The notes beneath the pieces are model-generated. The model ran no database searches. It worked only from the letters and a program-made list of their open reading frames with translations, and was not told the DNA's origin. From positions 24,538 through 88,537 of the forward strand of contig CAVUJM010000043.1 in assembly GCA_963741795.1 (NCBI GenBank): a stretch of DNA of 64,000 nt. Direction: 5' to 3'. Both the position numbers and the translations under genes were made by a program. The stretch's first letter is position 1. The number at the start of each line of letters is the position of its first letter. The stretch comes from an uncultured Chloroflexia bacterium. GTDB lineage: Bacteria; Chloroflexota; Chloroflexia; Thermomicrobiales; UBA6265. Shown piece after piece: positions 5,201 through 15,299 of this stretch.

Positions 5201-5632
5201 CTACACCTGCAGGCCGTCCTCCCACGGGTTCACGATTGGCACGCCGGTCGGCTCAAAATCCTTCACGTTCCGAGTGACAACATGCATGCCATGCTGGATC
5301 GCCGTCGCCGCGATGAGCCCATCGACGAAAGCCAACTGTGTTCCTTGCCGACGAAGGCCACCCGAAATCTCTCCCCATAAACGGGCCGTATCGGCATCGA
5401 CAGGAACAATTCGCGATTCGAACTCTCGCTCCATGTCATCGATCCATTCGAGGAGCGCCGCGCGACGTCGTCCCGCCGGCAGCATATGAGCTCCGCGAAC
5501 CAACTCGCCGAACGACAACACGCTGATCCATTGATCCTGTTTGGTCCGCTCCACAAATGCTGATACTTCGGGTGCGGTTTGCGGCCGATTCAGCTCCGAA
5601 AGCACGCACGTATCGAGCAGGTACCTCACCAT
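5201..5632 (-). CDS. vapC: Type II toxin, PIN-domain ribonuclease VapC
   Basis: N-terminal YLLDTCVLSE (PIN acidic residue) and C-terminal VTRNVKDFEPTGVPIVNPW. It overlaps the upstream antitoxin gene by 7 nt. Confidence 0.85.
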   Translation of the reverse strand: MVRYLLDTCVLSELNRPQTAPEVSAFVERTKQDQWISVLSFGELVRGAHMLPAGRRRAALLEWIDDMEREFESRIVPVDADTARLWGEISGGLRRQGTQLAFVDGLIAATAIQHGMHVVTRNVKDFEPTGVPIVNPWEDGLQV

Positions 5633-5862
5633 TCAATGTCCCGAGGCAGGTCCCTATCCCTTGGGAACTCCACATCGCCCTTCGGGATGCTCAGTAGATG
5701 CTCTCCGAAAGACTTCTTCTTACCCTCGATCTGCTCGAGCTCTTCCTGCGAGATCACGACCACGGCACCCTCATCCGTCTGGATCCGCTGACGCTTCTCG
5801 TGCAGCGCCTTCTCCACGATCTCCGAGAGCTTCTGATCGTCCTTTGTGATCGTCCAGTCCAT
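5626..5862 (-). CDS. Type II antitoxin (Phd/YefM-like VapB partner)
   Basis: 78 aa and acidic. It sits directly upstream of vapC and is translationally overlapped with it. There is a strong AGGAGG 6 nt before the ATG. Confidence 0.7.
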   Translation of the reverse strand: MDWTITKDDQKLSEIVEKALHEKRQRIQTDEGAVVVISQEELEQIEGKKKSFGEHLLSIPKGDVEFPRDRDLPRDIEW

Positions 5863-7315
5863 GACAGCACCTCCTGATGTTCTGTTGGGTTGCGACTGTC
5901 TGGATCAATCGTAGCAGGAGCCGAACGGCCCGGATCCCTACTCGTCCGTCAGGTGCCGCGAGCATGAGGTCGTAGACGTCGGTCGCGTCGATCTCATCGG
6001 AACCAAGCAGGTCGTGGGCATTGGTGATCACCATCGGGCGATCGTCGATGTGCTCATTGCGCAGGCCGTGCGAGCCCCTCACGACGGAAGCGTCCAGCGG
6101 CACGATCTCCAGCAGCGACCGGAAGCCGAGTTTCTTTTTCGCCAGCGAGAGACCGGCCTTGGCCTTCACGAACTTGTCCGCCGGGTCAAAGAAGAGCTCC
6201 GCCGGGTCGTAGCCCGGCTTCTGGTGGATATCCACCGTGCGCGCGTAGTCCGGCGCCTTGGCGTCATCGGTCCACCAGTAGTAGGTGAACCACGCGTCCG
6301 GATCCGACAGCGCGACGAGCTCGCCGGCCCGCTCGTGGTCCAGCCCCATCTCGCGCTTGCCCGCCTCGTCCAGCACGCGGCCGACACCGTCAACGCCCTC
6401 GACCACGTGCTTGACCTCGTCGATCTTCGCCAAATCGTTGACGTAGATATGCGCGATCTGGTGATCCGCGACGGCGAACGCCGTGCACGTCGCGACGTCG
6501 ATCATCTCGCGGCCCCATTCCTCGCGCCACGAGAGCCACCCCTTCTCGCGGAAGACGCGGTTCAGGTGCACCGGTTTCGAGACCGGCATGATGCCGTACT
6601 CGGAGAGCAGGATCACCCGGGCGCCACGCGACTCATAGAAGTCGATCAGGTCCCCCGTCACCTCGTCGATCTCCTGCAGGTCCTTGGTGATGTAGGTCCG
6701 GTCCGGTCCGTACTTCTGCAGGCAATAGTCGAGATGCGGGAGGTAGATCAGCGTCAGCGTCGGATTGAACTCGCGTTCATAGATCTTCGAGGCGTCGGCG
6801 ATCCACTTCGACGACACGATCGTCGCGTTCGCCCCCCAGAAGTTGAAGAGCGGGAACTGCCCCAGCTCTTCGGTCAGCCGGTCGCGCATCCACATCGGCT
6901 TCGTGTAGCAATCGGGGATCTTGCGGCCGTCGGAGGGATACATCGGGCGCGGAGTGACGAGATAGTCGGCGGTGGTGTTCATATTGAACCACCAGCTCAT
7001 GTTCGCCACGGTGAATGACGGATCCTGCTTCTTCGCGGCGTCCCAGATCTTCTCGCCCTCGACGAGCTTGTTCGACTGCCGCCAGAACTTCACCTCGTCG
7101 CGATCACGGAAGTACCACCCGTTGCCGACCACGCCATGCTCGCGCGGACGCTTGCCGGTCAGGTAGGTCGCGTGGCCGGTGGCCGTCACGGCGGGGATGA
7201 CCGGGTCGATCGACGCAGCCTTCCCGCGCTCGACAAAGTCCTTGATGCGCGGCGTCGATTCGCCGATGAGCGACGGGACGAGGCCGACCACGTTGATGAC
7301 AACGGTCTTGTGCAT
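5771..7315 (-). CDS. eboF: Alkaline-phosphatase-superfamily nucleotide pyrophosphatase/phosphodiesterase (EboF-type). The 3' end is uncertain.
   Basis: N-terminal VVINVVGL...AVTATGHATYLTG is the metal/nucleophile region of type I phosphodiesterases. It is the last gene of the ebo-like cluster. The last ~55 codons look non-native and overlap the antitoxin gene. Confidence 0.75.
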   Translation of the reverse strand: MHKTVVINVVGLVPSLIGESTPRIKDFVERGKAASIDPVIPAVTATGHATYLTGKRPREHGVVGNGWYFRDRDEVKFWRQSNKLVEGEKIWDAAKKQDPSFTVANMSWWFNMNTTADYLVTPRPMYPSDGRKIPDCYTKPMWMRDRLTEELGQFPLFNFWGANATIVSSKWIADASKIYEREFNPTLTLIYLPHLDYCLQKYGPDRTYITKDLQEIDEVTGDLIDFYESRGARVILLSEYGIMPVSKPVHLNRVFREKGWLSWREEWGREMIDVATCTAFAVADHQIAHIYVNDLAKIDEVKHVVEGVDGVGRVLDEAGKREMGLDHERAGELVALSDPDAWFTYYWWTDDAKAPDYARTVDIHQKPGYDPAELFFDPADKFVKAKAGLSLAKKKLGFRSLLEIVPLDASVVRGSHGLRNEHIDDRPMVITNAHDLLGSDEIDATDVYDLMLAAPDGRVGIRAVRLLLRLIQTVATQQNIRRCCHGLDDHKGRSEALGDRGEGAAREASADPDG

Positions 7316-7319
7316 AGGT

Positions 7320-8192
7320 TCAGGTTCCCTTGATATAGCGCTGGAGGAACATCGTCAGGGCGAGGCAGGTCATCGCGGTCAACGCGCCCCACCACGCCTG
7401 GTGGGTGGCAAGCACCAGCGCATCGAGCATCGAGATCCCGGCAATCAGGCGGGCGATCGCCCCACCGACCTGCCGATTGGAACTGCGGTAGGCAAACGCG
7501 ACGCTATGCAGCACCCACACCACATGGGCCACCGCGAGCGACCAGACCAGCACATCAACCGGCTCCATGATCACGGCAACCACGGCCGGGGCGATCACGG
7601 TCGCCAGAGGCCAGTAGCGCCCAACGCCCGGCAGCGACTCCGTCTTGGCGATATAGGTCAGGCCGGAGACGTACGCAAGCATCACCAGCGACCAGATCCA
7701 GAGCTCGCCCGTCGCCTCGCTCGCGAACGCATAAAAGGCGACGACGTAGACCATCACGCGGGCGAGCGCCATGATCACCGGGCCGATCGGGTTGCCCTTG
7801 TGCCAGGCATCGTAGATCGCGATCACCGCGACAAGCACGACACCCGCGTAGAACGACTCACGGTCGACCGTCCAGAGCAGCACCAGCCCGGAGATGAAGA
7901 GCACGAGCGTGACCGACCACGCCTCCACGAGCGTGATGCGCCCTGAAGGCAGAGGCCGGTCGGGGCGCTGCTCCCGATCGATTCTCAGGTCGAGGATGTC
8001 GTTCAGGTACATCCCTGCCGTGTAGAAGAGCGCGACGGCGATGATGATCAGCGCGATCTCCACGCTGAACACCAGCGGCGCGGCGATCACCGCCCCGGCG
8101 AGGACGTTGCTGATCGTGGTCGGCGTGTTGGAGATGCGCGCGAGCCCGAGGTGCGCCCGCAGCGCCGCGCCGGAGGGCCTCGGCTCAGACAT
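7320..8192 (-). CDS. eboC: UbiA-family prenyltransferase (EboC-type)
   Basis: Polytopic membrane protein with the Asp-rich motif NDILDLRIDREQRPDRPLPSG. Confidence 0.85.
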   Translation of the reverse strand: MSEPRPSGAALRAHLGLARISNTPTTISNVLAGAVIAAPLVFSVEIALIIIAVALFYTAGMYLNDILDLRIDREQRPDRPLPSGRITLVEAWSVTLVLFISGLVLLWTVDRESFYAGVVLVAVIAIYDAWHKGNPIGPVIMALARVMVYVVAFYAFASEATGELWIWSLVMLAYVSGLTYIAKTESLPGVGRYWPLATVIAPAVVAVIMEPVDVLVWSLAVAHVVWVLHSVAFAYRSSNRQVGGAIARLIAGISMLDALVLATHQAWWGALTAMTCLALTMFLQRYIKGT

Positions 8193-9396
8193 GATCCAGC
8201 ACCCACTGGAGCTCGCGGCTGATCATCGTCTCCAGCGGCGCCTTGAGGTCCGCCGGAAGCACATCCCAGGTGTATGTCTCGATCTCGAGGTGGTTCGTGA
8301 CCTCGCGCTCTCGCATCAGTCGGAACGTCTCGAGGATCGTGTCCTGCGTCGACTCGAACGCCTCGTACCGCTCAACGAAGACCGGCACATGGAAGTGCAG
8401 CCGCCATTCCTCCGCGTCCGCGTCGCCGATATGCGGCAGGGCGTCGGGCAAATCCGGGTAGTTCGTGAACGAGCCATCGGCGTTGCGCTGGACGACCTGA
8501 TGCAGGTAGACCGGCTCGTTGAACGCGGCGAGCTCCTTCGAGACCCGCTTGCGCCCCACCTCATCATCCGGCAGCGTCACCTTCAGCGCAGAGCTGATCT
8601 GGACCTTGCCGACCTTGATCCCAAGCGCGTCGAAGCGGTCCAGTAGCTCCCGAGGATCCTCGTAGCTGACGGCGACGTGGCAGGTGTCGAAGCAGACGCG
8701 AACATGATCGAGGATCTGCTCTCTCGCCAGCCCCGGGTCGTTCCCGGCCCGGTCGGCAAGCAAGGCCACACCCTGCTTCAGCAGCCAGTCCTCGTAGAAG
8801 CGGATCAGCTCGGTGCCATTGCTGAGCACGCCGTCCGGCTCCGGCTCGATATCGAGGTGAATGAGCTTGCCGGTTTCCTCGCGCAGGCGCACGAGGTGCT
8901 GCACGATGCGGACGATGTTCAGCGTGAACACGGTCCAGTTCGCCGGCATCCCGGTATCGACCCACGGCTTGTAGCCGAGCGGGCTCGTCGAGATGCTGCC
9001 CTCATCGATGTCGTCCGGCAGGAGCTTCGAGAGGATCGTGCTGAGCCGGAAGGTGTAACCGAGGCGCTCCTCGTCGTGCCAGTCCGGCAGGTGGACCTTG
9101 CCTTTCACCGCCTCGCCGTGGAACGGGCCATACGGGAAGCCGTTCATAGTGAAGACGTAGAGGCCGTGCTCGTCCAGCAGCGCGCGGAAGCGGTCCAGCC
9201 GGTCACCTTCGAGGATGTCCTTGCTGGCCTGACCGGCGAGCCGCAACCCGACGCCGAACGGCGCATCCGGCGAAAAGCGCGCCTTCAGCGGCGGTAGGTA
9301 CGTCTGGATGTTCGCTTCGACGTCATCCAGCGTGACCCCCGGATGCACGTTCATGCAGTAGGTGAGATGGCGAGACGGATGATCCGGTAACCGCAC
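8185..9396 (-). CDS. eboE: Xylose-isomerase-like TIM-barrel protein (EboE-type)
   Basis: The conserved N-terminal LTYCMNVHPG fits the EboE family, and so does the gene context. I chose the GTG at 9394-9396 (GAAAGG upstream). The longer ORF to 9567 would run into an intergenic repeat. Confidence 0.7.
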   Translation of the reverse strand: MRLPDHPSRHLTYCMNVHPGVTLDDVEANIQTYLPPLKARFSPDAPFGVGLRLAGQASKDILEGDRLDRFRALLDEHGLYVFTMNGFPYGPFHGEAVKGKVHLPDWHDEERLGYTFRLSTILSKLLPDDIDEGSISTSPLGYKPWVDTGMPANWTVFTLNIVRIVQHLVRLREETGKLIHLDIEPEPDGVLSNGTELIRFYEDWLLKQGVALLADRAGNDPGLAREQILDHVRVCFDTCHVAVSYEDPRELLDRFDALGIKVGKVQISSALKVTLPDDEVGRKRVSKELAAFNEPVYLHQVVQRNADGSFTNYPDLPDALPHIGDADAEEWRLHFHVPVFVERYEAFESTQDTILETFRLMREREVTNHLEIETYTWDVLPADLKAPLETMISRELQWVLDHV

Positions 9397-9451
9397 GAGG
9401 GATGGCCTTTCGTGATGGTAAAAGATCGCGTACAGCCGCGCGTGAAACACC

Positions 9452-9611
9452 GTCATTCCGAGGTAAGCGAAGCGGCGAGGAATCCCCCGGCGAAGCCGAT
9501 CGACCGCAGGTCGATACCCATGCGCGGCATCAAGCCCAGAACGGAAACGGAAGGCGCTTCGCGCCATTGGATGTGCTTCGCACGGGGATTCTTCGCTTCG
9601 CTCAGAATGAC
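9452..9611. repeat. MITE/REP-like element bounded by imperfect terminal inverted repeats
   Basis: GTCATTCCGAGGTAAGCGAAGCGGCGAGGAATCCCC (9452-9487) is the near reverse complement of GGGGATTCTTCGCTTCGCTCAGAATGAC (9584-9611). It lies in the eboB-eboE spacer. Confidence 0.6.
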
Positions 9612-9636
9612 GATGGCGTTGTCGCTTCGGGTTCGT

Positions 9637-10483
9637 TTACTGATCCAGGCTCACCGGCATCTGGCCGGCCGCGACGCCGCGCTTGAGCTGGAACTTCGGC
9701 GACTGGCTCAGGAAGCGCTTCGGGTTCTCGAACACGATCTCCCGGATCAACTCGTCCGTGTGCCCGCGCCGGCGCATCTCCATCATGAACTTCGGCACCG
9801 CGACCGGCTCGCTCGGTCCCCAGTCGCAGGCGGCCGCAACGACGATCCGCTCGGTGCCATAGCGCTCGAACATGTCGACCGCACGGCCCGGCGTCATCTT
9901 CGTCACCGGGTAGAGCGTGAACCCGGTCCAGAAACCCGGCATCGCGGATCAGCGGCAGGGTGTGCTCCTCGGCGTGGTCGATCATCACCCGGTTCGGGTC
10001 GATGCGGCCATCGGCGGCGAGCGTCTCCACGATCACCTTCGTGCCCTTGTACTTGTCCTCGAGGTGCGGCGTGTGGATATGGATCATCTGGTTGTGCTCG
10101 AGCGCCAGCTCGACGTGATCCTTGAACGACTCGAGCTCCTTGCGCGTCACGCGGTTGAGCCCGATCTCGCCGATGCCGAGCACGTTCGGGCGCTCGAGGT
10201 ACTCGGGGATGAACGCAAGCACCTGCTTGGTCAGCTCGCGGTCCTCGGCCTCCTTCGGGTTGAGGCAGAGCCAGGCGTAGTGCTGGATGCCGTACTCCGC
10301 GGCGCGGGCCGGCTCGAACGTCGTGATGTGATTGAAGTAGTCGCGGAAGACGTCGGCCGAGTAGCGGTCGTATCCGGCCCAGAACGCCGGCTCCGTGACG
10401 GCGACGCACCCGGAGAGCGCCATCTTCTCGTAGTCGTCCGTCGTCCGCGACACCATGTGCGCGTGCATGTCGATGTATTCCAT
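9637..10483 (-). pseudogene. eboB: TatD-family metal-dependent hydrolase (EboB-type), frameshifted as assembled
   Basis: ORF 9602..10483 has [14 protein letters not shown]...HIHTPH motifs but goes out of frame after LIRDAGF. ORF 9637..9942 continues [11 protein letters not shown]. The junction is at AAACCC 9932-9937. Confidence 0.75.
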
Positions 10484-10507
10484 AGGACTTGTCCCCCGTG
10501 TCTCGTC

Positions 10508-10807
10508 CTACCGGACGGATGCGCCATAGGCGGCCTTGCGGTCCAGCTCCTCGAGCAGGTCGGTGTTCTGGTCGCTGAAGATCATCTGGATCCGCTCGAT
10601 GCGCCCGGGCTCGTCGGAGTTCAGCTCCGCCATCGCCTTCCGCAGCGCGATGATCCGGAAATCGTCCTCGGCGTTCTTCTCCTCCAGCCGGTCGAGCCGG
10701 TCGAGGAATGCCGCAATCTCCAGCACCCGGTTACGCTGCTCCATGAAGTACTGGTCGATGTGCTGCTGCTGCGTCAACGGGCTCTTGGGAACGGTGATCT
10801 CGCTCAT
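10508..10807 (-). CDS. Small helical hypothetical protein inside the ebo-type cluster
   Basis: 99 aa. Its start overlaps the eboD stop by 4 nt (10804-10807). It is too short for me to equate confidently with EboA. Confidence 0.5.
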   Translation of the reverse strand: MSEITVPKSPLTQQQHIDQYFMEQRNRVLEIAAFLDRLDRLEEKNAEDDFRIIALRKAMAELNSDEPGRIERIQMIFSDQNTDLLEELDRKAAYGASVR

Positions 10808-12012
10808 GATGTAACTCCTGTCCTCACGCGCGCCGCGCTCTCGGCCGCAAGCACGTGCATCGACTCGACAATGACCGACTCGTCCATTTCGTGGACCTCG
10901 ACGCCGCGACCAATCCCTTCCAACAACATGATCGTCAGCTCCCCACCCAGATGCTCACGGAACTCGTTCAACCCCGCAAGGATCGACGACGACGTTCCAC
11001 GCTGCTCCAGGGACGCGAGCAACTCTGGCGCGGAGATCGGCAGCCCGACGGCGACGAACACGTCGAGGATGCGTCGCCAGTCGTCCTCCGGCAGCATCCC
11101 CAGCTTCCATGCATACGTGGAATCCAGCGCGATGCCGATCGCGACCGCCTCACCGTGGCGCCAGGCGTAGCCGGAGATCTGCTCCAGCTTGTGCGCCGCC
11201 CAGTGGCCGAAGTCGAGCGGCCGCGACGACCCGAACTCGAACGGATCACCGCTGGTCGCGATGTGCTGCAGGTGCAGCTCCGCGCAGCGGAAGATCAGCC
11301 AGTCCATCGCCTCGGCATCGCGTTCGCGCAGCGCCGTCGCCTGCTCCTCGATCCACGCGAAGAAGGACGCATCCTTCAGCAACGCGACCTTGATCGCCTC
11401 GGCGATGCCACCGATCCATTCGCGGTCCGGCAGCCGGGAGATGAGCAGGGCATCGTTGATCACGGCATACGGCGGGGCGAAGGTGCCCAGGAAGTTCTTC
11501 TTGCCGAACTTGTTGACGCTGTTCTTCACGCCGACGCCGGAGTCGTTCTGGGAGAGGATCGTCGTGGGCATGCGAATCAGGCGAATCCCGCGGTGCGCCG
11601 TCGCCGCCGCGTAGCCAACCATATCGAGGATCGCCCCGCCGCCGATCACGACGACGTAGGAATGCCGGTCGATACCGCCGGCGTCGATCGCGGCATGGAT
11701 CTCGTCGACGATCTCCGGGTCATTCTTGATCGCCTCGCCACCGGAAACCAGCATCGGTGGCTGGACAAGCTGCAGCTGCCTGCCATGCGCGGCGAACCAC
11801 GCCTCGATCTCCGGCGCGAGGTCGGGATACGCGTTGGCGACACCGCCGTCGAGGACAACCAGCACCTTCCGCACGCGGGCCGCGCCATCGCGCGCGCAGA
11901 CCTCGGCGAGGATCTCGTTGTCAGGATGGAAGACATCCCGGGTGAACAGGACTGGATAGGTATACGGGACCTGGATCGATTGCTCGATCACGCGGGATTG
12001 AACGTGGGACAT
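10804..12012 (-). CDS. eboD: 3-dehydroquinate-synthase-like sugar phosphate cyclase (EboD-type)
   Basis: DHQS-fold motifs VVVIGGGAILDMVGYAAATAHRGIRLIRMPTT and LSQNDSGVGVKNSVN. It is the first gene of the minus-strand cluster. Confidence 0.8.
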   Translation of the reverse strand: MSHVQSRVIEQSIQVPYTYPVLFTRDVFHPDNEILAEVCARDGAARVRKVLVVLDGGVANAYPDLAPEIEAWFAAHGRQLQLVQPPMLVSGGEAIKNDPEIVDEIHAAIDAGGIDRHSYVVVIGGGAILDMVGYAAATAHRGIRLIRMPTTILSQNDSGVGVKNSVNKFGKKNFLGTFAPPYAVINDALLISRLPDREWIGGIAEAIKVALLKDASFFAWIEEQATALRERDAEAMDWLIFRCAELHLQHIATSGDPFEFGSSRPLDFGHWAAHKLEQISGYAWRHGEAVAIGIALDSTYAWKLGMLPEDDWRRILDVFVAVGLPISAPELLASLEQRGTSSSILAGLNEFREHLGGELTIMLLEGIGRGVEVHEMDESVIVESMHVLAAESAARVRTGVTS

Positions 12013-12197
12013 GGATCAGGAACATCCTTCAGGCTGCGTGGTCCTCTCCAAAGGGACACGAAAGGGAAACGGTGAATCACCGACGCCGGTTGCCAATGGA
12101 CTTCCGGGGACACGATGTCGGTATTATCCCGCATCCGTTCCATTGCGCCACCATCGGCACACCAACGTGACCGGCGGTCACAGGGATCATCTGGAAT

Positions 12198-12436
12198 TGT
12201 GGATAACCCCGCCCATATGGTGGATAACCCGCCACATTTGTGGACAACATGCCGGGGATTGTGGTGAAAGCCGGGTTGGGCCGTGTGTGGGCTGTGCATG
12301 TCGCGGGGACGCCCGTGGGGATTGTCAACGCTGTCGGAAGACGTGACAGTGGAGCCGTGGATGACGCTGGCCGGTTGTCCACGACGAAATTTCGGCGCCA
12401 TATCGGGCCAATCGGGACTTATCCCCACTATCCACA
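12198..12436. promoter_or_regulatory. Cluster of 8 DnaA-box-like 9-mers (oriC-like / DnaA-binding region)
   Basis: TGTGGATAA 12198, GGTGGATAA 12219, TGTGGACAA 12239 and TGTGGTGAA 12260 are spaced 20-21 bp apart. CGTGGATGA is at 12356. On the opposite strand are TTGTCCACG 12375, TTATCCCCA 12419 and CTATCCACA 12428. Confidence 0.65.
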
Positions 12437-12441
12437 CCCCC

Positions 12442-12485
12442 TATTAACGGTTACGAATTCTCTTTCATACTTTAAGAATTAACGG
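12442..12485. other. AT-rich tract (candidate DNA unwinding element) right after the last DnaA-box pair and a C5 run
   Basis: TATTAACGGTTACGAATTCTCTTTCATACTTTAAGAATTAACGG is about one-third G+C by my count, in an otherwise GC-rich window. Confidence 0.5.
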
Positions 12486-12684
12486 GCACGGACAACGCTC
12501 ACGTGGACACACGTCACATGCACACACCAAACCACCTCCATTCCATAGACCCCGGACCCCGGCCGAGCGCGCAGCGCGAGAAGCGTCAGCGAGCCTTTGT
12601 GTCCGGGGTCGTGCGCGGAGACTCACGGGCATCAGGTCGCTTGTGCGACGTGACTGCGTACGAGGTGAACGTCTTCGAAGACGC

Positions 12685-13761
12685 TTAGTAATAGATCGTC
12701 GGTGTCAGGTGATAGGGATGGAGGGCGCCCGGAAGCGCCTGCGACTGCGTCCACAGCAACCAGTCCAGCTCATATGCCGAAAACGCGCGGCCGCGGTCCC
12801 GTAACGCCTGGCGCAGCAGCTCCACGCCCCAGATCGTGCCGGCGCGAATCTCTATCTCGACCAATGATCCGGCCGGGATGTGCTCGCGCGCCTCGATGAT
12901 CGCCGCCAGCCCGGGCGCGTAGCGCAGGATGCCCAGCTCGCGGAGCATCTGCGGCACCTTGTAGTCCGCGAATGCCGTCAAGGTGTGGAGATCGTGGAAA
13001 ACGCCGAGCGGCGAGCCCTGGAGCCCACCCGCGAGATCGCCGGCGAGGATCTGGGCGCGCTTGTAGAAGCGCACCTCGTTTCCGGGCAGGCCGGTTTCGC
13101 CGCGCGGCCAGGTCGCGACGTCATGAAACGATGGGAACCGCCGCACGACGTCCTCGATCAGCGCGATGGCCGAGCCCTTGGCCTGCTGGATCAGCGTTGT
13201 CGCTGGTCTCTCGCTGTCGAGGTCGAGCAGGCCGCTGCCGAGCTCGCGGAGGTTCCAGACACGATGGTGGAAGAGCGGGATGAGCGCATGGCCCTCTGCA
13301 GGCGCCAGGATCGCCTCCACGGTCCCGTCATCGATGTTCGCGAGAAACGGTGCATTGTGCAGCGGCACGCCGTTCTCGACGGCCCTGGTGAGCGCGGCAA
13401 CGAGGGCGACGTAGCCGTCGACCAGCTCCCCGCGCCACTCGACGCGCCAGCGGAAGGCGGGATCGCTCCCCTGCCCCCAGAAGCAGAAGTTCAACGCGTC
13501 CAGCACAAGGATCCACATCGCCGTGCGCTCGTCGCCGTCCGGTCCGGTCGCCCGGTAGTGCAGCGCCGCATCCCACTCCGGGGCAGAGTCGTGATCGCGA
13601 AGGTCATCGGCGACCGTGGCGATGGCATCCATGTCGATCGCGACATCGTCCGCGGTGCGCATCACGGCCGCGGTCGAGCGCAGGATACCCAGCGGATCCT
13701 CCGCCTCGGTCATCGCGATGCGGGACCAATCGACTCCGGATGCGGGTCGCCACGATGCCAT
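12685..13761 (-). CDS. Queuosine salvage family protein (DUF2419)
   Basis: LDALNFCFW, RFYKRAQILAGDL, LTAFADYKVPQMLRELGIL, and the C-terminal HPYHLTPTIYY. Confidence 0.75.
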   Translation of the reverse strand: MASWRPASGVDWSRIAMTEAEDPLGILRSTAAVMRTADDVAIDMDAIATVADDLRDHDSAPEWDAALHYRATGPDGDERTAMWILVLDALNFCFWGQGSDPAFRWRVEWRGELVDGYVALVAALTRAVENGVPLHNAPFLANIDDGTVEAILAPAEGHALIPLFHHRVWNLRELGSGLLDLDSERPATTLIQQAKGSAIALIEDVVRRFPSFHDVATWPRGETGLPGNEVRFYKRAQILAGDLAGGLQGSPLGVFHDLHTLTAFADYKVPQMLRELGILRYAPGLAAIIEAREHIPAGSLVEIEIRAGTIWGVELLRQALRDRGRAFSAYELDWLLWTQSQALPGALHPYHLTPTIYY

Positions 13762-13762
13762 C

Positions 13763-14389
13763 TCACACCTCGCGGATCATCGTCCAGTGACGAACGGAAC
13801 CCGGAACGAGGGGAACATCCCGCTCGCGGATCCGGAAGCCGAACCGCTCGTAGAAGCGGACGTTCCGCTCCGTGCCGGTTTCGAGATAGACCGGTGCAAC
13901 CTCTCTCGCCAGGACATCGTCCAGCGTGGCCTGGAGGAGCGCGCGACCGGTTCCGGCGCCCTGGCCATCCGGATGAACGCCCAGGTACATGAGGTACCAC
14001 GCCGGGTGTGGCGGGAAGTGCGCCACACAGGCCTCGTCATAGGCGATCAGGCCATGCAGCATCTCTTCGGGAAGTTCGTGGAGATAGGGTGGGAGTTGGG
14101 GCGCCACGCCATCTGGCATCGGCGCCGGCGGGTAGGCGCCCGGCGCGGCGAACGCGGCCACACCGAGCAGCTCCTCACCCCGGAAGGCGCCGTACGCCGC
14201 GTCATCACGGACTGCCGCATGGACGGTATCCGTGATGAGCGGCGCGAGCACCTGCCGCCGGATCTCCTCATCCGGGAGAACGGCGGCGTAACCCGGCTCG
14301 ACCATCATTGCCTCGGCGAGGATGGTGCCGCCCTGGGCGGCGGACGCATGGGAAAGCTTCCTGATATCGATCGACACGTGTGTCCTCAT
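13763..14389 (-). CDS. GNAT family N-acetyltransferase (paralog 1)
   Basis: GVHPDGQGAGTGRALL acetyl-CoA motif and NVRFYERFGF. Confidence 0.8.
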   Translation of the reverse strand: MRTHVSIDIRKLSHASAAQGGTILAEAMMVEPGYAAVLPDEEIRRQVLAPLITDTVHAAVRDDAAYGAFRGEELLGVAAFAAPGAYPPAPMPDGVAPQLPPYLHELPEEMLHGLIAYDEACVAHFPPHPAWYLMYLGVHPDGQGAGTGRALLQATLDDVLAREVAPVYLETGTERNVRFYERFGFRIRERDVPLVPGSVRHWTMIREV

Positions 14390-14442
14390 CGTCTGGGGAT
14401 CATCTGAACGGCGCGAATAGGTCCCGATCCGATGAGTATGCC

Positions 14443-15063
14443 CTAGACCGTGGCGGGAACGCGCGCCGGGCGGTACATCGTCCAGTGCGGCGTGGAGCCC
14501 GGCGCGAGCTGCACCTCGGCCTTGCGCACGTCGAAGCCGAAGCGCTTGTAGAAGCGGACGTTGCGCTGGGTGCCGGTCTCGAGATAGGCCGGGAGGCCGT
14601 CCTTGTCGAGCTCTTCCAGCGACTCGCGCAGCAGCGTACTGCCGATGCCCTTGCCCTGGCCTTCCGGATCGACGCCGAGCAGCTTCAGGTACCAGACCGG
14701 CTCGTCCGGGAAGTGCGTGTAGCAGTTGTCGTCGTACGCCTGGAGGCCCTCGGCGATCTCGGGATCGACGTTCTTCAGGTACGTCGGCGTCCCGTCATCG
14801 TCGGCCGGCGGGTAGGAGCCCGGAGCGCCCCAGATGGCGACGCCGAGGATCTTGCCGGTCTCCTCGTCGGTGGCGACGAAGACGGCGTCGTGCGACATCG
14901 CGGTCTCGATCGAATCGTGCATGCGGGAGACGAGTACGCGGCGGCGCACGTCCTCGTCGGGGAGGACGGCGGCGTAGCCGGGCTCAACCATCATCGCTTC
15001 GGCGATCACCGGGCTGGCGTGCGGGGTCTCATGGGCGTCGAGTTTGCGGATCTGAATACTCAT
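14443..15063 (-). CDS. GNAT family N-acetyltransferase (paralog 2)
   Basis: GVDPEGQGKGIGSTLL and NVRFYKRFGF. It is collinear with paralog 1. I use the ATG at 15061-15063; the longer 529-aa ORF upstream is a shadow ORF over rlmN. Confidence 0.8.
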   Translation of the reverse strand: MSIQIRKLDAHETPHASPVIAEAMMVEPGYAAVLPDEDVRRRVLVSRMHDSIETAMSHDAVFVATDEETGKILGVAIWGAPGSYPPADDDGTPTYLKNVDPEIAEGLQAYDDNCYTHFPDEPVWYLKLLGVDPEGQGKGIGSTLLRESLEELDKDGLPAYLETGTQRNVRFYKRFGFDVRKAEVQLAPGSTPHWTMYRPARVPATV

Positions 15064-15299
15064 AAACGGAAAACGGGTCCTTTTCGATCGTGATCGTCCG
15101 AAACATACTGTGACCTCGCGGGGTGCGGACGATCTCGCGTCCCGCGGGTCATGCCAATCGCCCTCGATCCCGCATGTGCGGGGAGGGCATGGCGACATAC
15201 CGGTATACCTCCCGCCAGTCTCGTGCCGTCGGGGCAATCGATCAGGCTGATACCCCGAGGCGGCACCTGCGGTACCGGTCTCGCACACGTGGTGCGAGA

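Follow-up and report, generated by a model that had tools for sequence, protein, structure and literature searches.

A 64,000-nt stretch of the genome of an uncultured soil Chloroflexia bacterium of the Thermomicrobiales (contig CAVUJM010000043.1, positions 24,538 to 88,537; hereafter the window) carries six co-directional open reading frames (ORFs) on the minus strand at 5771-12012, which form an ebo-type cluster of the variant that has the short gene eboG in place of eboA. Its gene order, eboD-eboG-eboB-eboE-eboC-eboF (DGBECF), is the modal order of this published variant. With its chemistry assigned by homology, we consider it probable, at roughly 0.6, that the operon is intact in the living organism and directs the synthesis of a thallusin-type product; thallusin is an algal morphogen that a May 2026 preprint (bioRxiv 10.64898/2026.05.21.724671) ties to ebo genes. 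An earlier note on this DNA had recognised the six ORFs, their common direction and their gene families, and on each of these points it was borne out. The layout of the cluster is as follows.

10804..12012, minus strand: eboD, EboD-type, dehydroquinate synthase (DHQS)-like sugar phosphate cyclase (NCBIfam NF004852)
10508..10807, minus strand: eboG, 99-aa helical protein whose start overlaps the eboD stop (ATGA)
9637..10483, minus strand: eboB, TatD-like metallohydrolase, broken by one additional T (+1) at 9932-9934; 281 aa in relatives
9397..9636, minus strand: eboB-eboE spacer of ~240 nt, with a GTCATTCTGAGCGAAGCGAAGAATC motif and a weak hairpin
8185..9396, minus strand: eboE, xylose-isomerase-like TIM barrel, ~403 aa from GTG 9396 or 389 aa from ATG 9354
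7320..8192, minus strand: eboC, UbiA-family membrane prenyltransferase of 290 aa, with an NDxxDxxxD motif at residues 64-72
5938..7315, minus strand: eboF, alkaline-phosphatase-superfamily phosphodiesterase, ancestrally ~458 aa; a 1-nt insertion at ~5958 shifts the ORF end to 5771

EboD scored 588.6 bits against NF004852 (cutoff 333) and EboE scored 475.3 bits against TIM_EboE NF035939 (cutoff 250), the latter model beginning at residue 68 of the long ORF (8185-9567). Both proteins are above their NCBIfam cutoffs, and the locus is an ebo-type cluster. The remaining enzymes were assigned by Pfam together with full-length alignment to homologues. EboB matched Pfam TatD with 36 bits (cutoff 27) over residues 4-144 only of the 9602-10483 ORF, EboF matched the type I phosphodiesterase family Phosphodiest with 224 bits over residues 4-370, and EboC matched UbiA with 81 bits (cutoff 34). 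The top NCBIfam match of EboC was EboC NF035940, at 126.7 bits and under the equivalog cutoff of 250. The UbiA protein resident in a Deinococcus cluster is likewise under this cutoff (96 bits), and the Prokaryotic Genome Annotation Pipeline (PGAP) labels the cluster-resident Deinococcus, Ketogulonicigenium and Mycetohabitans enzymes just 'UbiA family prenyltransferase'. Most of the junctions are overlapping or short, as the earlier note had stated: eboD and eboG share the ATGA overlap, eboG and eboB are separated by 24 nt, eboE and eboC overlap by 8 nt, and eboC and eboF are 4 nt apart. The description fails for eboB and eboE, which are separated by 240 nt or 282 nt, depending on whether eboE starts at 9396 or 9354.

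Synteny was assessed with a scan of EboG over the GTDB species representatives. At least 378 genomes gave a match, and the locus counts given here refer to 80 loci retrieved for comparison. These loci span at least eight phyla, with hosts in the Thermomicrobiales, Ktedonobacteria, Anaerolineae, Roseiflexaceae, Trueperaceae, Solirubrobacterales, Thermoleophilia, Rhodothermales, Acidobacteriota, Gemmatimonadota, Armatimonadota and Phycisphaerae, together with a verrucomicrobium and Thermithiobacillus tepidarius. The eboG gene lay immediately 5' of eboB on the same strand in all 80 loci (median gap 27 nt), and nearly all of them held additional ebo genes. DGBECF was the commonest order (39/80), CDGBEF was found in 11/80, and the remainder were partial or rearranged. 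Because ebo genes surround the homologues of the 99-aa gene in 80/80 loci, their clustering in the window is not due to chance; the comparison with relatives that the earlier note had proposed thus came out in its favour.

The non-canonical order, to which that note had drawn attention, was already on record. Yurchenko et al. (2016, Open Biol 6:160249, PMC5133447, section 3.2) described a variant ebo operon that consistently has no eboA and that contains a short conserved gene provisionally named eboG; it was seen in Deinococcales, Herpetosiphon, Thermithiobacillus tepidarius and an acidobacterium. In their Table S2, the order is DGBECF in Herpetosiphon aurantiacus (Chloroflexi) and in Deinococcus, and it is CDGBEF in Thermithiobacillus and in an acidobacterium. 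Compared with the published DGBECF operons (Herpetosiphon aurantiacus DSM 785 and Deinococcus spp.), the window shares gene content, order and orientation, including a ~100-aa protein between eboD and eboB and the absence of eboA. It differs in its host, an uncultured member of the Thermomicrobiales that was unsampled in the 2016 paper, in the frameshifts of eboB and of the eboF terminus, and in the 240-280 nt spacer between eboB and eboE. The arrangement, the gene set and the name EboG have therefore been known since 2016, and what is new is the instance from the Thermomicrobiales, which is unsurprising given the Chloroflexi among the eboG taxa.

The 99-aa protein had no match in Pfam or NCBIfam, the latter searched down to E<=10. 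A Deinococcus plasmid cluster has a protein with 50% identity to it in the corresponding slot, and homologues from Thermithiobacillus tepidarius DSM 3134 (locus L049), Trueperaceae, Acidobacteriota and Chloroflexota are encoded between eboD and eboB, in agreement with Table S2 of PMC5133447. Matched by slot and taxa rather than by the accessions of Table S2, the protein is recognised as the EboG of Yurchenko et al. We found 321 homologues in a collection of 5.8 billion proteins, and 988 representative clusters (50% identity) came from a profile search, almost all being stand-alone proteins of ~100 aa.

The earlier note had correctly observed that a canonical EboA is absent and that a small helical protein coupled to eboD by the ATGA overlap is present instead, and it had asked whether this protein is a truncated or divergent EboA. 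That identity was excluded by NCBIfam EboA models, a BLAST-level search and hhalign. The EboA models did not match the EboG of the window or its Deinococcus homologue, while three genuine EboA proteins, of 228-248 aa, scored 133-171 bits with them. Comparison of a 28-sequence EboG alignment with an EboA alignment of three sequences in hhalign gave a probability of 0.2%, and the HHalign test of EboG against EboA reported in PMC5133447 was negative as well. With tblastn, zero EboA genes were detected in the 80 G-type loci (~18 kb each) or in the window. EboG and EboA (NF035937/NF035938) are alike in occupying the slot before eboB, in lacking a recognisable catalytic domain and in being predicted cytosolic. 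Since there is no sequence or profile similarity between them and EboG is less than half the length of EboA, EboG is, on these comparisons, a positional analogue of EboA and not a member of its family.

The other Ebo proteins align at full length with those of plasmid clusters of both types, G-type in Deinococcus and A-type in Aureibacter and Ketogulonicigenium, in which PGAP names EboA, EboC or EboE. Identity to the Deinococcus plasmid cluster was 60% for EboD, 73% for EboB (after repair of the frameshift), 54% for EboE, 45% for EboC and 56% for EboF; for Aureibacter (Bacteroidota) the values were 50% for EboD, 43% for repaired EboB, 43% for EboE, 50% for EboF and 32% for EboC, and EboC was 36% identical to that of Ketogulonicigenium. 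EboB, EboC, EboD, EboE and EboF of the window are thus orthologous, at 32-50% identity to Aureibacter, to those of the canonical eboABCDEF operon of Bacteroidota, Cyanobacteria and eustigmatophyte plastids, in which a small non-enzymatic-looking gene also immediately precedes eboB. The canonical operon differs from the window in gene order and in holding a 228-248-aa EboA where the window has the unrelated 99-aa EboG, and the EboC of the window is under the NCBIfam EboC cutoff. The EDB cluster of Pseudomonas fluorescens NZI7, an ebo variant that this strain requires for repelling C. elegans (PMC12904256), can be likened to the window by its description in that paper only: it has six ebo homologues, including a cyclase and a prenyltransferase, and differs by three extra genes.

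We then considered what EboG may do. Between the window and its closest relative, locus L002, eboG is 96% identical at the DNA level, with 12 synonymous and 0 nonsynonymous changes, and is under purifying selection; eboD differs by 80 synonymous and 17 nonsynonymous codon changes. The AlphaFold2 model of EboG has four helices at a pLDDT of 78, with no relative in the PDB and no match to a known enzyme fold. One metagenomic locus (L090, 6001-6756, JGI metagenome 3300065614) encodes a 251-aa GAF-EboG fusion in the eboG slot of a cluster ordered G-B-E-C-D-F, with a GAF histidine kinase and a sigma-54 activator upstream; this fusion is borne out by its context but was seen only once. A second apparent fusion, of EboD with EboG (P0253), was discarded, as its truncated DHQS_C domain probably reflects a frameshift or a gene-calling artefact. 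Moreover, eboB is directly preceded by a gene for EboA or EboG in every arrangement of Table S2 and in every locus examined. Based on the purifying selection, the small all-helical structure without an enzyme fold, the GAF-EboG fusion and the position before eboB, EboG most likely has no catalytic role and serves the pathway as an accessory or regulatory protein, with EboB as its probable partner. A more specific proposal, which we advance tentatively and would not favour at present, is that EboG partners EboB and regulates it in response to a ligand, having taken the place of the unrelated EboA. On this proposal the eboG type would be the prevailing form of ebo among phyla of soil (Chloroflexota, Deinococcota, Acidobacteriota, Solirubrobacterales, Gemmatimonadota and others) and would have another control or end product than the marine eboA-type thallusin pathway.

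The statement in the earlier note that the product of ebo clusters has never been defined is out of date. According to the preprint (10.64898/2026.05.21.724671), which links ebo to thallusin, ebo genes are present in 27/27 thallusin producers and in 0/8 non-producers, and Stieleria no longer makes thallusin once any one of eboB, eboC, eboE and eboF is deleted. It further reports that L-aspartate goes into the quinoline core and that EboC enzymes of three phyla farnesylate 6,7,8-trihydroxyquinaldate. Taking the product chemistry of EboD from PMC12904256, we propose that EboB, EboE and EboF would convert the EboD-derived cyclitol and L-aspartate to a hydroxylated quinaldic-acid scaffold, and that EboC would farnesylate and possibly cyclise this scaffold to a meroterpenoid of the saccharoquinoline/thallusin type.

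Several points weigh against extending this chemistry to the window. The thallusin link comes from a preprint, and the validated producers in its available part are of the A-type or are planctomycetes said to lack eboA, none being a named G-type. That part mentions neither eboG nor Chloroflexota, though it counts Deinococcota and Acidobacteriota, both eboG lineages, as potential producers. EboC of the window, 32-36% identical to A-type EboC and under the equivalog cutoff, could differ in substrate or product, and gene adjacency is the sole ground for the suggested partnership of EboG with EboB.

A ferritin-like protein may be relevant to a later step of thallusin formation. A gene annotated as 'ferritin-like protein' is located just upstream of two eboA-type clusters, on an Aureibacter tunicatorum plasmid (L087, 817-2085) and on a Mycetohabitans endofungorum plasmid (L089, 1969-3051), hosts that belong to two unrelated phyla. 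Its product is a possible candidate for the enzyme that oxidises saccharoquinoline to thallusin. The gene has no counterpart adjoining the cluster of the window.

Four other explanations were weighed against an intact operon with a thallusin-type product. The same eboG-type cluster might make another end product, with the exchange of EboA for EboG and a divergent EboC redirecting the late step, a possibility already raised in section 3.7 of PMC5133447. It would fit the mutual exclusion of EboA and EboG, unrelated in sequence, in the ~18-kb loci and the window, the low identity and score of EboC (126.7 bits against 250), and the identities of G-type EboB, 73% within the type and ~42% across types. 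However, the 43-50% identity of four core genes plus eboD is usual for iso-functional orthologues across phyla, the EboC enzymes of three phyla share one substrate according to the preprint, and proteobacterial A-type EboC also falls under the NCBIfam cutoff, so that we regard this as possible but doubtful. A prenylated cyclitol acting in the membrane and moving other metabolites to the periplasm, the role proposed for scytonemin export in Nostoc, is a good deal harder to maintain. The pairing of a cyclitol synthase with a membrane prenyltransferase would suit it, and Klicki et al. (2018, PMC6282210) reported that ebo is required for export of scytonemin precursors. Yet no scytonemin genes were found near the ebo cluster in the window, and in the preprint thallusin is obtained from an ebo-carrying Nostoc, the scytonemin effect is argued to be indirect, and the in vitro substrate of EboC is a quinoline rather than a cyclitol, which makes this reading highly improbable. 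Finally, the earlier note had set the ebo assignment against a genuine AroB in a shikimate context, which here would stand by coincidence beside unrelated hydrolase and prenyltransferase genes. Pfam, which recognises nothing but DHQ synthase domains in EboD, would permit this, but the aroB model TIGR01357 scored 217.8 bits, under its cutoff of 305, against 588 bits for the EboD type, and the six genes are kept together in many phyla; the AroB reading is refuted, and the cluster is ebo.

The fourth explanation, a decaying relic that yields no product, concerns the sequence as written. All five of eboB, eboC, eboD, eboE and eboF, the thallusin gene set of the preprint, are present in one cluster. 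The earlier note had called the cluster complete, but eboB and the eboF terminus are frameshifted in the given sequence. Window DNA is ~92% identical to CAVUJR010000008.1 (metagenome-assembled genome (MAG) MFD01721.bin.2.39, 'uncultured Chloroflexia') and to three Logan contigs, and the more remote homologues belong to the Thermomicrobiales. Alignment of eboB with L002, L003 and L005 revealed a single additional T in GGGTT(T)C at 9932-9934, and tblastn split the gene into two frames at 9932-9936. The 293-aa ORF at 9602-10483 is EboB for its first 184 residues and out of frame thereafter; the genuine C-terminus, of 99 residues, is encoded in another frame and ends at 9637, and the relatives encode an intact 281-aa EboB. 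In eboF, a 1-nt insertion at ~5958 precedes the ancestral TAG (5938-5940, still present) by six codons; it alters the last six codons, and the resulting 514-aa ORF reads 56 extra codons into the downstream antitoxin gene. L002 has an EboF of 458 aa, to which that of the window is 96% identical over 452 aa.

If these mutations were real, as their presence in the given sequence and the intact eboB of three relatives would allow, the operon would be in decay. However, a codon-usage frame scan combined with Pfam showed that other genes are also split by single-base shifts: smc at ~1239, pxpB/pxpC at ~17691, ~18280 and ~18499, an ABC-transporter ATPase at ~49955 and a STAND-TPR-LuxR regulator at ~61800. 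Relative to L002, the coding sequence of a 22-kb interval contains at least six uncompensated 1-nt indels, smc included, and a density of about one such indel per 4-10 kb is far too high for a free-living bacterium. Beyond the shift, eboB keeps its original stop and shows 9 synonymous and 0 nonsynonymous changes relative to L002 in the old frame, eboF retains its ancestral stop as well, and the nearest relatives of the window are long-read MAG contigs. Given the high indel density and the splitting of the essential gene smc, the frameshifts of eboB and of the eboF terminus are very probably assembly artefacts, and for this reason the ebo operon is probably intact in the organism; we consider decay unlikely. 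Programmed frameshifting in eboB was ruled out, as three close relatives encode EboB in one frame.

Beyond this instance, the locus itself adds little, since the chemistry of the pathway is now under elucidation. EboG, by comparison, represents a large conserved family of ~1000 clusters at 50% identity that has not been studied since it was named.

The start of eboE was also reconsidered. Gene calls in relatives place it at ATG 9354 and not at 9567. The peptide ERPSLVRLPDHPSRHLTYC upstream of ATG 9354 is conserved, and a conserved GTG at 9396, preceded by a GAAAGG Shine-Dalgarno sequence, gives a 403-aa EboE, matching the 401-402 aa of EboE in Deinococcus and Aureibacter. GTG 9396 is thus the likelier true start than ATG 9354, as judged from sequence conservation. 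The spacer upstream of eboE is partly conserved with L002. It holds GTCATTCTGAGCGAAGCGAAGAATC at 9587-9611, a motif present nowhere else in the window and retained in part at this position in L002; a weak terminator-like hairpin follows at 9565-9553. Rfam gave zero matches across the whole window at gathering thresholds, a sigma-70 promoter scan of 5-13 kb found none, and terminator-like sites in the same interval showed no excess over shuffled sequence.

Downstream of eboF, a toxin-antitoxin pair is encoded on the minus strand, with a Phd-like antitoxin at 5626-5862 and a VapC PIN toxin at 5201-5632. The same slot of L002 holds a toxin-antitoxin pair that is 45-59% identical in protein, between flanks that are 93-97% identical and behind an identical leader (5860-5906). 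The difference suggests that one cassette has been exchanged for another at a fixed site.

Upstream of eboD, within 12013-12684, a DnaA-box-like cluster was found at 12198-12480. Five of the 12 matches to TTATCCACA in the window (at most one mismatch allowed; 2.9 expected per whole window) fall there within 240 nt, adjoining an AT-rich stretch at 12440-12480. This region is 90-93% identical to L002-L004 and ~70% identical to L007 and L008; the latter two have 5-6 DnaA boxes upstream of eboD, and loci of other phyla are without them. Cumulative GC skew reaches a local minimum at 12-14 kb, and trmE and rpmH-rnpA-yidD are nearby. The region is a candidate oriC or DnaA-binding region. We rejected the box cluster as a general regulatory feature of ebo operons, as it occurs only in the closest Thermomicrobiales loci.

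Further upstream, two tandem GNAT acetyltransferase paralogues with ~51% mutual identity are encoded on the minus strand at 13763-15072. They are flanked by a queuosine-salvage gene (12685-13761) on one side and by a radical-SAM RlmN-like gene on the other, and the same arrangement is present in L002.

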